From Saccostrea cucullata (lineage: Eukaryota): a stretch of DNA of 64,000 nt. Numbering within the stretch: position 1 is the first letter of the stretch; the number at the start of each line of letters is the position of its first letter. A model generated the notes under the pieces. It was not told the origin of the DNA. It ran no database searches and saw only the letters and a list, made by a program, of their open reading frames with translations. This document shows, one piece after another, positions 171-12,760 of this stretch. The stretch covers positions 868,001-932,000 of the forward strand of contig NW_026918900.1 of assembly GCF_032062105.1 (NCBI RefSeq). Reading direction: 5' to 3'. Both the position numbers and the translations under genes were made by a program.

Positions 171-3100
171 ATGAAGGTAAGCTTTTACATTAGTATCTTA
201 TTTAAGTTTTGTTAATTTTTTAATCTTTCTTTTAAACAGTAATGGCAGTAAGTTCCTTCATTTGGTTTTGTATAAAAATTTCAAAGGAAGTGTTGAGGAA
301 GTGTTGTTTTGTCCTCTTTAGAGTTTTAATTGTATTTGCTTCACATCCTCTCTGCTTCTCTTATTCGAGTATGAATACAGTCAAGATTTATTTCAAGTTT
401 TCGGTGTAATCAGTTTATCTGTTCCCTTTCAGAAATAAACATTATTGTCTCTATTTTTTTTCTTCAGATTAATTCCAAGTTTTGTTCAAATTCATTATCA
501 ATCCTATAAATAGTGTTAGTTTTTATTGCAGTGCGTTTGGTTACTTGTCGCAACAGTATTCTTTGTTATCTGTTTATCCGGGGCTTCTGGTGAAAAGACG
601 TGCGATGTTATAAAGTTTGGTAGAGGGGAATTTGACAAGAAAAAAGAATGCTGGAAGAAGGAACCTACAACGCCTCATTTGGAGGTTACATCTAGCCCTC
701 AATCTTTAAACATCAGGTCAGAATTTACCTTGTATTCAGTAATCCTTAACATCAATTACCATCTAGGCCTCAGTCTTTGAAAACTAGGTCAAAATTTACC
801 TTGTATTCAGTAATCTTGAACAATTAGAGGCAACATATCAAGGCAGCATCTAGGTCGCAAACTTTGAAAATCAGGTCAGAATTTACCATGTTAATCTTTA
901 ACATTCAGTGATCATTTAACATCATCATATTCAAATATTGCATGCTTGAAATGGAAGTGCAAACATTTTATCACAAATGAATATGTTGGTATGAAAAAAG
1001 ATCCCGTATCTATGAAGTTTTAAAAAAGTTGATTAATGATATCGATAATATGTACTGAAAGTCAGTAGTCATCTGATATATGATAGCAAATATTTTCTGC
1101 TCAGAAAATCAATCAAACTGATTTTTGAAGTATTTTATGGTAAAATAAACTTCGCCTTCTAATTCGATAAACTTCTACATTTATATCCGTGAATTTAATA
1201 ACTTTATTTCCTTTTAAATCTTCCCTTACCTTTATAAACAGATAAAATAAAAAAAAATCCGTAGAAAGAGAATCGGCAAACACCTTAATGTCTAATAAAA
1301 AAAACGTGCCCTTGTCTGATATTTGGTCTGAAATAGTCTTGTCTTTTAAGTTTCTTTAAAATACATGTAATATTGCCTTAAACAAATTTTTGACCCTTTT
1401 ATCTTTCCTTTAAGATGGTCCGATTCCCAGGTCTTAAAAATCATGGCTTGGATGATTGAATGTACTCACAAAAGTGAGAGTTTGAATTATAAAAATACTG
1501 TATATATACACATGTAAATTTTTTTTAAAGTTCTTCATCAATTTTAATTATATTGTATAGGGGAAAATATTTAAGATCTGAAATATATTTTTGAGAAATG
1601 CATTTAAGTACCGACTACAGTAAAACCTTTGATAAAAATTGCTATATCCTTTTAATCGGTAAAAGTGTATTAGGTAACATCTTTTTAGTATTCAAATGGT
1701 AAAAATACAAAACATACCGTCACTTACTGATGTTTTGTAAAATGAATTTCATTTTACTTTCTAAAAATAAAGTATCATATATAAGATTTTTAAAAACACA
1801 GACTCAAAATCAGTCACTTTTAATATCATATAATGTTACTTCGCTATAAACATTGGTAGACCTTTGATCGGTACGTTAGGTCATCTTTTTACTTCAAATG
1901 GTAAAAATGTAAGTAAAATGCTAAGATAACACAGATAATACAATAATGCAATAAATTTTATTTCTATAAAATGCAGCTATTTATGTTCATAAAGAGGTTT
2001 TCCAAAGGCCCCTGAAACATACTGAGATACATGTACATAAATTGAAAATTGTTGCCTGAAAAATATTGAATTTTCAGCTTAATTTTGAGCTTTTTTAGAT
2101 TTGATATAAATAATAAGAGTTATCTTCCTGGATGAGGAGCGGATATTCTTTAGGTCAGTCGACACGCTCCTTAAAAACATATAATTTTAAAGATTTTTAT
2201 TTGATGAATGGGTACTTAAACAAGATTCTTCACAGAAAATTAGGCTACCTTTCCAGGCATTTGGACATGAAACCACAGGGTCATATTTCTGATAAAACCC
2301 TTATGTATATATTGTAATCTTCTGAATGTCCTGTATCACCATTTTTGGTGTACTTATATCTAAATGTCGAAATCAGAATAGGTTGACAAATATGAATACT
2401 GTTTATATAAAACCAAGAGATACAAAATCAGAAGAGTTTGACAAATATGAATACTGTTTATATAATACCAAGAGATTCAAAAATCAGGAGAGTTTGACAA
2501 ATATGAATTCTGTTTATATAATACCAAGAGATACAAAACATGTATTAAAAACGTGTCATCTGACATTAAATACAAAACATTGTCTTCATTAAAGGTTTAG
2601 ATATCATGTTGACAGTGTGTGTTACTTAAAGATCACAGGGTATTTAAGGGTAGTTAACAATTACATTCTAACACAGTAAGCCAAAACTAAGCCACTGTAA
2701 AGAAATTTGAAAGCAATATTCTAGTCATATCGTGTTTGAATGCAACCTCAATATATCATGATTGATTATTATTCATATCGAAATTAAAATTATATTTTAG
2801 GAGAAAAATTCAGCGTGCGCTCAAGTGCAGACTGGGAATACAGAAGTTTCTTGCTCAGAAATCGGATTGTGTGTATATTGTAAATTGTTTAATTCCACGG
2901 TGTTAAAAAGATATCTCAAAAAGTATATATTGTGCGAGAAATTATTTTTCTATAGCAATTTAACATAATTTCTAACATTACATGGATTAAATTTCACGGA
3001 AAATTAATGTGCACCATAGCGAAATTTCAATCTACAGTATTATTTATTTTTCGTTAATATTCTAATACATGACTGTGCGCCTTACTTTTTAATTTGAAAC

Positions 3101-3503
3101 AACATTTTTTTTTTCAGCAAATATACAGATATTGGGCTGAAAAACGTTTGTCCAATCAAATTCGAGTATGCAACAGAGATTAAGAGAGGAAGAAAAAGAT
3201 GTTATGTTGTGTATCCTACCCGTCAATGTGTAACATTCGCAAAGTGCCAGACAAAAAAGTAAGAAGCTGTTAAAGTATCATTTTTACTGTTTTTCCCTTG
3301 TCTTTATATTACAAATGCAGGCTATGTTTATACTTAACAGGAATTGCTCGAAGACAGCGAAAAGGGGCGTAAAAAGTGCTTGTTTGGCTGACCGATTCCG
3401 TTACTTCAACGTTTGGATATTCTGTCCGGACAACCATAGTTTTGAATATGAAACCGTGCTGTTACCTCAATGCTGTTCTTGCAGAGAATACAAGCGCTGT
3501 TAA
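171..3503 (+). CDS. Secreted Spaetzle-like cystine-knot protein, copy A (~188 aa); exons 171-176, 532-716, 2801-2872, 3118-3258, 3341-3503
   Basis: GT-AG exons join in phase (0,2,2,2). Translation: MKCVWLLVATVFFVICLSGASG (signal peptide) EKTCD...NIRRKIQRALKCRLGIQKFLAQKSDCVKYTDIGLKNVCPIKFEYATEIKRGRKRCYVVYPTRQCVTFAKCQTKKNCSKTAKRGVKSACLADRFRYFNVWIFCPDNHSFEYETVLLPQCCSCREYKRC*. The Q-x-V-x3-C-x5-C...C...PxCCxC spacing resembles the Spaetzle cystine knot. TATA-like motif ~120 and AATAAA at 3631. Exons are conserved in the paralog. Confidence 0.8.
700..900 (+). repeat. Degenerate tandem repeat (~70-85 bp) containing the exon-2 donor motif ATCAG/GTCAGAATTTACC
   Basis: Motif at ~712, ~782 and ~870. 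The paralog has five to six copies at 11660-11960. Confidence 0.75.
2380..2540 (+). repeat. Intronic ~55-bp tandem triplication
   Basis: TTGACAAATATGAATACTGTTTATATAA.ACCAAGAGAT occurs 3 times. The paralogous arm has a single copy (~10280-10330). Confidence 0.8.
2876..3039. mobile_element. Small MITE (TA-CTGT...ACAG-TA type) in intron 3 of copy A
   Basis: Imperfect ends TATTGTAAATT / AATCTACAGTA. Absent from the paralog intron (~9920). Similar ends at 62171-62377. Confidence 0.65.
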
Positions 3504-11500: not shown

Positions 11501-12760
11501 CTTTCAGTACATATTATCGATATAATTAACCAACTTTTAAAAACTTTATAACAGGATCTTTTTGTATACCAACATATTTAACTGTGATAAAATGTTTGCA
11601 CTTTCATTTCAAGCAATACCGGTATTTGAATAGGATGAGTTGAATGTTAAAGATTATTGAAGGCGAGGTAAATTCTGACCTGATTTTTAAAGATTTGGGC
11701 CTTGATGTACAAGGTAAATTCTGACCTGATTTTCAGAAATTATTGCTTAGATGTATTCTTTAAATGTTACCGATTACTAAACAGAAGATGAATTCTGACC
11801 TGATTTTCAAAGTTTGCGACCTAGATGTTGCCTTGATATGTTGCTTCTAATTGTTCAAGATTACTGAATACAAGGTAAATTTTGACCTAGTTTTCAAAGA
11901 TTGAGGCCTAGATGGTAATTGATGTTAAGGATTACTGAATACAAGGTAAATTCTGACCTGATGTTTAAAGATTGAGGGCTAGATGTAACCTCCAAATGAG
12001 GCGTTGTAGGTTCCTTCTTCCAGCATTCTTTTTTCTTGTCAAATTCCCCTCTACCAAACTTTATAACATCGCACGTCTTTTCACCAGAAGCCCCGGATAA
12101 ACAGATAACAAAGGATGCTGTTGCGACAAGTAACCAAACGCACTGCAATAAAAAAAACTAACCCTGTTTATAGGATTTATAAACAATTTGAACGAAACTT
12201 GGAATTAATCTTAAAAAAAAATAATAAAGAGACAATGATGTTTATTTGTGAAAGTAAAAAGATAAACTCATATTAATACACCGAAAAATTGAAATAAATC
12301 TTGACTGTATTCATACTGGAATAAGAGAGGATGTGAAGCAAATACAAATAAAACTCTAAAGAGGACAAAATAACACGTCCTCCACATTTCTTAGCAATTT
12401 TTATACAAAACCCCATGAAGGTACTCTTTAGTCAACAATTGAATATTATCCTATTTTCCTGAGAAACTTGCATTTGTAAATAATTCCATTTGTATACATA
12501 ACTCAAATTCATTGCTGTTTGAAAGAAAGATTTTAAAAAATTAATTAACAGAACTAAAATAAGATACTAATTTAAAAGCTTACCTTCATGATGGCAGAGA
12601 GTCAAACTTGACGGAGGCCAGTGAAGTTTTGCTTTTCATCCGACGCTTTATATACACTTTTTCTTATTATATAAAAATAATTAACACTTTCATTTGCAAA
12701 ACAGTCACGAAAACCCGTTTTTACGGTTTGAGTATCTTTGTTGGAAATCTTTAAGATAAT
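8505..12760 (-). repeat. Right arm of inverted segmental duplication
   Basis: Reverse complement of 1-4825, without the insertions private to arm A. Confidence 0.92.
9461..12589 (-). CDS. Secreted Spaetzle-like cystine-knot protein, copy B (~191 aa); exons 12584-12589, 11958-12142, 9931-10011, 9707-9847, 9461-9623
   Basis: Reverse-complement paralog of copy A with the same splice phases and an intact frame. Exon 3 ends QKSSDCDP-S and exon 5 reads KTTQRSVK. Poly(A) signal at 9328-9333. Confidence 0.8.

Follow-up and report, generated by a model that had tools for sequence, protein, structure and literature searches.

The window analyzed here, a 64,000-nucleotide stretch of Saccostrea cucullata DNA (contig NW_026918900.1, positions 868,001 to 932,000), carries two convergent genes, termed A and B, which encode small and nearly identical cysteine-rich proteins. 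The window is AT-rich animal DNA whose homology indicates a Saccostrea rock oyster. Our preferred interpretation, built by analogy with known systems and held tentatively, as somewhat short of probable, is that the pair derives from a recently duplicated gene for a secreted, dimeric, cytokine-like cystine-knot protein which retains its N-terminal cap and has an immune or wound role. By its design the protein appears to belong to the Spaetzle/coagulogen/NGF knot group, judging from alignments and models; it stays outside the Pfam Spaetzle, NGF and DAN families, resembles coagulogen by fold only and would stand, in predicted shape, between Spaetzle and coagulogen. The proposed course of events is as follows. 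A protein of about 20 kDa, member of an oyster multigene family of this group, would be secreted and, once its signal peptide is removed, would consist of an N-terminal arm, a two-helix cap and the cystine knot, as modelled on relatives. Two chains would associate through the strand preceding the first knot cysteine and through the C-terminal strand, according to the models, and the homodimer would act outside cells as an immune or wound cytokine, through a receptor at the cell surface for which a Toll-type leucine-rich repeat receptor is the leading guess. Such a function is assigned by analogy only.

Both genes were spliced by coordinates, the junctions being deduced from splice signals and from the RefSeq models of relatives. 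Each gene comprises five coding exons separated by GT-AG introns, and its first coding exon is reduced to 6 nt encoding Met-Lys. The elements of the two genes are the following.

106..113, + strand: TATA-like element upstream of gene A (motif match only)
171..176, + strand: gene A coding exon 1 (Met-Lys), with a strong donor; same start in P0003 and P0004
532..716, + strand: gene A exon 2, signal peptide and N-terminal arm
2801..2872, + strand: gene A exon 3, two helices, weak donor, three codons shorter than in gene B
3118..3258, + strand: gene A exon 4, first half of the cystine knot
3341..3503, + strand: gene A exon 5 (coding part), second half of the knot and stop codon
3631..3636, + strand: AATAAA poly(A)-signal match of gene A
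12647..12654, - strand: TATA-like element upstream of gene B (motif match only)
12584..12589, - strand: gene B coding exon 1 (Met-Lys)
11958..12142, - strand: gene B exon 2, signal peptide and N-terminal arm
9931..10011, - strand: gene B exon 3, two helices, good donor
9707..9847, - strand: gene B exon 4, first half of the cystine knot
9461..9623, - strand: gene B exon 5 (coding part), second half of the knot and stop codon
9328..9333, - strand: AATAAA poly(A)-signal match of gene B

A TATA-like element and an AATAAA signal are thus present for each gene. The products measure 188 aa (gene A) and 191 aa (gene B), are 96% identical and both finish in the C-terminal motif given in the original prediction, a model's annotation of this DNA made from its sequence. 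The two convergent five-exon genes described there, with their 6-nt first coding exon and their C-terminal motif, were confirmed by the splicing and by P0003, a RefSeq model from S. cucullata which is 97% identical over 142-145 aligned residues. The start and the first three junctions of P0003 agree with gene B, and the model ends a few residues into exon 5. The Met-Lys start of gene A is found in P0004 as well, and P0002, a relative about 80% identical, spans the whole chain. The hydrophobic N-terminus suggests a signal peptide, judged from sequence alone. That the genes were missed by the open reading frame (ORF) track, as had been pointed out, is true but ordinary for a spliced gene, and exons 2 and 5 do sit within stop-to-stop ORFs of at least 70 aa. 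An alternative donor at 685 was considered for exon 2 and rejected, as it requires a non-GT donor downstream or a frame break and disagrees with the relatives. The end of exon 2 and its donor constitute the first unit of a degenerate tandem repeat of about 71 nt entering intron 2 (689-822 and 11644-11998), whose donor-like copies recur, past an in-frame stop, at 870 and at 11804, 11730 and 11684.

The family was collected by sequence searches. Comparison of P0002 with 1.84 billion representatives returned 11 matches at E <=0.001, and all 9 that were looked up are oyster proteins. A profile search retrieved 25 matches among 1279 candidates: 7 are unnamed or hypothetical, and all 18 named ones originate from Saccostrea, Magallana, Crassostrea or Ostrea and are labelled 'uncharacterized'. 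The family is multicopy, with several members per oyster genome and paralogues 25-35% identical, and the lineage-specific pair initially proposed was therefore too narrow a description. In a tree of 28 rows two subfamilies are separated with a support of 100/100, and the window genes fall within a six-row Saccostrea clade, beside which long branches are flagged by the tool. The members of the second subfamily (P0041, P0060-P0066; P0035, P0040, P0052-P0059) bear neighbouring locus numbers in C. virginica and M. gigas, which suggests tandem clusters in these species. Family members of M. gigas and C. virginica include LOC105324248, LOC105340550, LOC105340551, LOC105328910, LOC111133940-43 and LOC111134271. 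Two clusters lie nearest in the ESM Atlas, one of Spaetzle-domain proteins (0.93) and one of 123 mostly molluscan members, 25% of them with Pfam Spaetzle, the latter being located near both queries (0.92 and 0.93). The family is probably wider than oysters, because the word-based search used here is weak for distant relatives and because of the proximity of this molluscan cluster. Neither the family nor a molluscan coagulogen-like protein was found in a literature search covering main texts, unaccented spellings and few subscription journals; the same search yielded no papers for six oyster locus ids of the family.

The alignments used below (A3 and A4) contain 24 sequences. Left out were P0003, which is truncated; P0008, a partial sequence for which P0031 was used instead; P0009, a shifted isoform; the exon fragments P0012 and P0047-P0051; P0013, which is repetitive and was considered unrelated; and P0032, with its long N-terminal extension.

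Structures were predicted with AlphaFold2 for the relatives P0002 and P0035 (the latter about 32% identical), both models resting on the same 24 sequences, with a mean predicted local distance difference test (pLDDT) score of 82.9 and 83.8, respectively. Both display a signal helix, an extended arm, two helices at pLDDT >=90 and the long paired strands of a cystine knot, and the six cysteines at the knot positions are invariant in all 24 aligned members. Cystine-knot proteins top every fold search. Among 48,161 solved chains, coagulogen (PDB 1aoc, 175 residues) ranks first for P0002, with a Z of 7.4 and a root-mean-square deviation (rmsd) of 4.8 over 137 aligned residues (model 41-198 on chain 1-175), and for P0035, with a Z of 6.2 and an rmsd of 5.6 over 133 residues (25-165 on 1-175), a Z below 8 being middling by the note of the tool and possibly reflecting only a common arrangement. 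A second structural look at P0002 gave a Z of 6.9. Coagulogen leads the next match by more than 1 Z unit for both models, the structural alignments having an rmsd range of 4.0-5.6 and an identity of 15-19%. It is followed by noggin (Z 4.9-5.0), NGF (4.5-5.0), sclerostin (4.3-4.9) and gremlin (4.0-4.5), a ranking in which the whole-length scores are inflated for coagulogen and noggin, which are among the few knots solved with their N-terminal part, the solved Spaetzle and NGF chains being devoid of pro-regions. The neurotrophins fit the knot region at the lowest rmsd (3.1-3.7 over 85-96 residues). With Foldseek, coagulogen ranks first for P0002 (E 6e-3) and 11th for P0035, where neurotrophins lead, and no match reaches E <=0.001 for either model. 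The secreted cystine-knot protein of the Spaetzle/neurotrophin group announced by the original prediction is therefore supported by the models of relatives, in which the knot topology is seen, and by the fold searches; the group was right, and coagulogen as the closest solved fold over the whole length had been missed.

No row was obtained for Pfam NGF (PF00243) or Pfam Noggin among the 24 members, and Pfam DAN gave 16.8 bits vs a cut-off of 22 (E 0.0069) in 2 of the 24. Single window exons have no Pfam Spaetzle match, and the scans of 6 of them returned only Sclerostin (E 0.078, 13.1 bits vs a cut-off of 27, gene B exon 5). Coagulogen yielded no row at E up to 10 in the Pfam and PDB sequence searches, the latter, performed with P0002, P0039 and two profiles, producing chance rows or nothing.

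The arrangement of the cysteines bears upon the state of the N-terminal part. After the signal peptide 15 cysteines are present, 2 before the basic RRKIQR segment and 13 after it. The extra cysteines noted previously are supported; the division into 4 and 11 was wrongly placed at RRKIQR and falls about 20-30 residues past it. A cysteine located just after helix 2 in P0002 and P0003 is missing from both copies (2862-2872 and 9931-9948), being replaced by Ser in gene B and deleted in gene A, and the window genes thus have 15 mature cysteines vs 16. RRKIQR occupies residues 72-77 of P0002, within a predicted helix (69-80) in which only hydrophobic positions are invariant among the 24 members, many of them acidic there. 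R-x-x-R occurs nowhere in gene B, and R-x-[KR]-R is absent from the arm, helices and linker of the 24 members. By its sequence RRKIQR is not a furin motif, and activation by cleavage at this point, as first suggested, is not supported in view of its location inside a helix, of its lack of conservation and of the absence of R-x-x-R from gene B. Likewise, the N-terminal 'pro-region' appears in the models as an ordered and conserved helical module and not as an unstructured pro-peptide.

The co-occurrence of cysteines was followed in the 24 aligned members, using P0002 numbering. Cysteines 96 and 137 are both present in 10 members and both absent from 14; 34 and 81 are both present in 3 and both absent from 7 of the 10 rows having residues at the two columns; 50 and 201 are both present in 18 of 24, and the only 3 rows without 201 lack 50 too. 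These patterns suggest that three links start from the N-terminal part and that the helical cap stays tethered by disulfides. In gene B numbering we infer the knot disulfides 102-152, 134-183 and 140-185 and the additional disulfides 26-73, 42-191, 88-128 and 119-166, Cys182 being left over. A nick would then loosen the cap and not release it, because these bonds would hold it to the knot. No basic residue flanking helix 1 is conserved across the 24 members; in the Saccostrea members an Arg separates the two helices, and in S. echinata the next residue is Pro. In coagulogen, disulfides tie the N-terminal chain to the knot and two arginine cleavage sites release a helical peptide. The tethered cap would by analogy resemble coagulogen more than Spz1 as described in PMC9427763. 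It may also be common to compact Spaetzle-like precursors, because the Atlas's own model has a whole-chain template modelling (TM) score of 0.49 to arthropod Spaetzle-domain clusters.

Dimerization was modelled with two copies of P0002 residues 30-201, in a run made without the 24-sequence alignment. Scores of 0.63, 0.61 and 0.63 were obtained vs 0.00 for the best of 3 controls, with at least 90% of the contacts in agreement between runs and a pLDDT of at least 82. In microbes, 21 of 30 solved pairs reach the mark applied and none of 23 single chains does so; in eukaryotes, 17 of 29 pairs (7 of 16 in animals) and 0 of 30 single chains reach it. The homodimer foreseen in the original prediction is thereby supported by one model of the relative P0002. 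Strand 104-110 is paired with 191-199 in its interface, to which the arm also contributes; residues 51 and 199 of one chain contact a common residue of the other, in keeping with a 50-201 bond. A spare cysteine (192 in P0002), present in 23 of 24 members, lies inside the interface and beside the fifth knot cysteine, and may be equivalent to the inter-chain cysteine of Spaetzle.

A number of points weigh against the cytokine interpretation. The structures and the dimer were modelled on relatives and not on the window proteins, and the disulfides were deduced from alignment patterns and not read from coordinates. Each co-occurrence pattern amounts to about one evolutionary event on the tree, and 3 rows retain Cys201 without Cys50. 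Among 7 eukaryotic pairs that lack an older solved relative, a single one passes the dimer mark, and the pass observed here may reflect resemblance to NGF or Spaetzle dimers already solved; the 25 best pairs listed include no 192-192 contact. The solved Spaetzle knot, represented by chains without pro-domain, scores low (Z 3.1-3.4). The Pfam Spaetzle check proposed originally was run and remained far below the cut-off, PF16077 giving 8.1 and 12.5 bits vs 27, in 2 of the 24 members only. The pro-domains of Spz1 are unstructured and cut at the knot junction according to PMC9427763, unlike the ordered cap predicted here, and mollusc Toll-like receptors (TLRs) are reported in PMC7773633 to bind microbial patterns directly.

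The family was also compared with Spaetzle (PF16077; Drosophila Spz1-6, PDB 3e07, 7b1c), especially Spz3 and Spz4. A signal peptide and a C-terminal knot ending in CC-x-C are common to both, as is the spare cysteine, and extra cysteines are also a feature of Spz3 and Spz4 (PMC2586362). The oyster N-terminal region differs in being short, ordered and probably disulfide-tethered; it has no conserved cleavage site, while furin-site cleavage is described for Spz2 and Spz5 in PMC9427763. An endogenous Spaetzle-like ligand for oyster TLRs is left open in PMC3788107; no endogenous ligand is known in that paper or in PMC7773633, and the present family would provide concrete, expressible candidates for such a ligand or for a clotting role. 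Spaetzle-like mollusc proteins are already known, namely one clam gene and the Atlas cluster mentioned above. The spatzle homologue of the bivalve Paphia undulata (Yu et al. 2015, as cited in PMC7773633), reported to be induced by bacteria and unproven in TLR signalling, is another bivalve Spaetzle-like gene. The present family has expanded in oysters that are farmed, bears the label 'uncharacterized' in all named records and stays under the Pfam cut-offs, and the masking of knot precursors could be conveniently studied on its compact, tethered cap.

Other functions were weighed against the same data. The rank of coagulogen raises the case of a coagulogen-like effector, from which a protease would remove or loosen the helical segment between tethered chains and so expose a surface driving polymerisation into a gel or matrix, for wound sealing, microbe trapping, mucus or shell matrix. 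Judging from the models, the two proteins would share the N-terminal arm, the helical segment and the NGF-type knot (137 and 133 of the 175 residues aligned); they have in common a small and similar size, a basic charge and a high cysteine count, and the N-terminal chain of the oyster protein would be tied to the knot as in coagulogen. Coagulogen heads the whole-length ranking of both models (Z 7.4 and 6.2) and is the first Foldseek match for P0002, and its cleavage to a gel is described in PMC9365167. We nevertheless regard such an effector as rather unlikely. Both models come from the same 24 sequences, their Z values may correspond to a mere common arrangement inflated by the N-terminal part, and Foldseek places neurotrophins before coagulogen for P0035. 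The oyster protein differs moreover by the lack of detectable sequence similarity and of conserved basic sites around helix 1, by its multigene family in a mollusc and by its predicted homodimer, coagulogen being said not to dimerise for function in PMC2586362; gelation is a feature of coagulogen. The same source designates Spz4 as the Spaetzle closest to coagulogen and reports that phylogeny could not separate coagulogen from Spaetzle and neurotrophins. In a bolder form, which we consider unlikely, the family would be the molluscan counterpart of coagulogen, stemming from an ancestral protein with arm, helical cap and knot, and proteolytic loosening of the cap would trigger assembly into a cell-free clot or wound matrix; if true, the coagulogen architecture would exist outside arthropods, and clotting and Toll-ligand activation would stem from one ancestral precursor design. 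Wound sealing in bivalves is generally attributed to the aggregation of cells, with no plasma clot involved.

An antagonist of the noggin, DAN or sclerostin type, whose dimer would bind BMP or a Wnt co-receptor and whose basic surface would bind matrix heparan sulfate, is suggested by the alignment with noggin over the N-terminal part and knot (115-127 residues, Z about 5), by the sclerostin and gremlin scores, by the weak DAN match and by the strong positive charge. This match is nevertheless under the family cut-off, the Atlas neighbours are mainly Spaetzle, and a rapid multi-copy expansion with such low paralogue identity is atypical of conserved developmental antagonists, which makes this function distinctly unlikely. 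The neurotrophins (NGF, BDNF, NT3, NT4) are dimeric too and provide the best rmsd for the knot region as well as the top Foldseek match for P0035, and a neurotrophic factor acting on Trk or p75 could be imagined on the model of the gastropod cysteine-rich neurotrophic factor (CRNF), to which 11 conserved cysteines and a proposed knot are attributed in PMC3966541. We find this very unlikely, as the oyster protein has no Pfam NGF match in 24 members and no furin site, carries many extra cysteines and a retained helical cap, and has no gastropod protein among its named matches; the likeness to CRNF is one of count, set by description and not by sequence. A direct cationic antimicrobial action, for which a secreted and duplicated protein with a mature isoelectric point (pI) of about 9.5 and 36-37 Lys+Arg vs 16 Asp+Glu might qualify, is highly improbable: the positive charge, correctly recognized at the outset, is strongest in the window subclade (pI about 9.5-9.6) and is not a trait of the family (6.2-9.6 across the 24 members), whose common traits are the receptor-ligand-type fold and hydrophobic strands. 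The least probable of these explanations is the original scheme itself, a Spaetzle-like pro-protein cut at RRKIQR to free an 11-cysteine knot, with homo- and heterodimers formed by two functional genes. The basic cluster, the knot, the homodimer and the 96% identity of the proteins agree with it; the cluster is however helical and unconserved, 13 and not 11 cysteines follow it, R-x-x-R is lacking and the donor of gene A is degraded.

The cytokine-like gene proposed here was duplicated together with its surroundings. The corresponding features, given without strand, are listed below.

1..4825: left arm of the inverted duplication, extending beyond the window start; a repeat is inserted at about 4305-4700
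4826..8509: spacer between the arms, 3.7 kb
8510..12760: right arm of the inverted duplication
520..883: homogenised tract 1, exon 2 and 167 nt of intron 2, 99% identical, pairing with 11791-12154
3040..3663: homogenised tract 2, exons 4-5, intron 4 and 3' untranslated region (UTR), pairing with about 9301-9925
2876..3039: 164-nt insertion with short imperfect inverted ends, resembling a miniature inverted-repeat transposable element (MITE), adjoining the gene A intron-3 donor

The 'palindromic pair' of the original prediction is indeed inverted and tail-to-tail; it is an imperfect inverted segmental duplication, with introns about 90% identical and a spacer, and not a strict palindrome. No third copy of the family was detected in the window, spacer included, by tblastn or by a profile run over six frames. 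The long introns and the flanks of the two arms are 89-91% identical and contain arm-specific insertions. Exons 2-4 are 98-99% identical and exon 5 94.5%. With a divergence of 10% as reference, intron 4 is identical at 82 of 82 positions (p 2e-4), 3 mismatches occur in the initial 167 nt of intron 2 (p 3e-5) and the 3' UTR differs at 6 of 160 positions (p 3e-3). We infer gene conversion between the arms because these non-coding stretches beside exons are near-identical vs a background of about 10%, and the pair would accordingly be a recent inverted duplication held similar by conversion. By itself, such an inverted pair is an ordinary duplication with conversion. S. echinata has two near-identical family members with consecutive numbers, which group together on the tree. 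The pair is unlikely to be an assembly artefact or a haplotype duplicate, as the arms differ by about 10% in introns and by several arm-specific insertions. Seven of the 9 exon-5 differences between the copies are packed in 15 nt (3357-3371 and 9593-9607), in the variable loop of the family, and P0003 stops just past the equivalent of 3357-3371, as if frameshifted there.

Gene B is a clean and sound copy. The intact frame claimed for both genes is secure in its case and doubtful for gene A, whose intron-3 donor matches 4 of 9 consensus positions vs 7-8 for the other seven donors of the pair. The MITE-like 164-nt insertion begins three bases into this intron and is not found in gene B, and three codons of exon 3 are lost relative to gene B. 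Only 3 of the 14 GT sites in 2830-3100 preserve the frame (4, 4 and 5 consensus matches; 2846 and 2900 are the other in-frame candidates), and the three best-scoring ones (6 matches) all disrupt it. The frame of gene A is thus open only with a weak donor, because the strong sites all break it, and there is about an equal chance that gene A is poorly spliced or decaying and that it is not.

Several other features were observed in the window. About 2 kb past the right arm, at 14682-17052, a 437-nt unit is repeated in tandem (5.4 copies with 95% matches). Decayed retroelement fragments are found on the - strand at about 23300-24750 and 27100-29700, with a GIY-YIG endonuclease match (E 4e-5) and reverse-transcriptase-like frames; they are probably of the Penelope type together with a stretch resembling a long interspersed nuclear element (LINE). 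An intronless sequence similar to rhodopsin-type G protein-coupled receptors (34855-35956, + strand) is split over two overlapping frames (7tm_1, E 5e-6 and 0.004), which indicates a frameshifted gene or a sequence error. Integrin-alpha-like exons at about 56300-62200 (- strand) give weak FG-GAP and Integrin_A_Ig_2 matches and include a segment near 56330-56560 that resembles a transmembrane stretch. Short local palindromes and minisatellites (units of 21-22, 63 and 21 nt) occur at 26030-26817, 32547-32669, 47899-48036, 46152-46673 and 48863-49128, and a long CT-rich tract of low complexity with a strong strand skew is located at 44446-44844.

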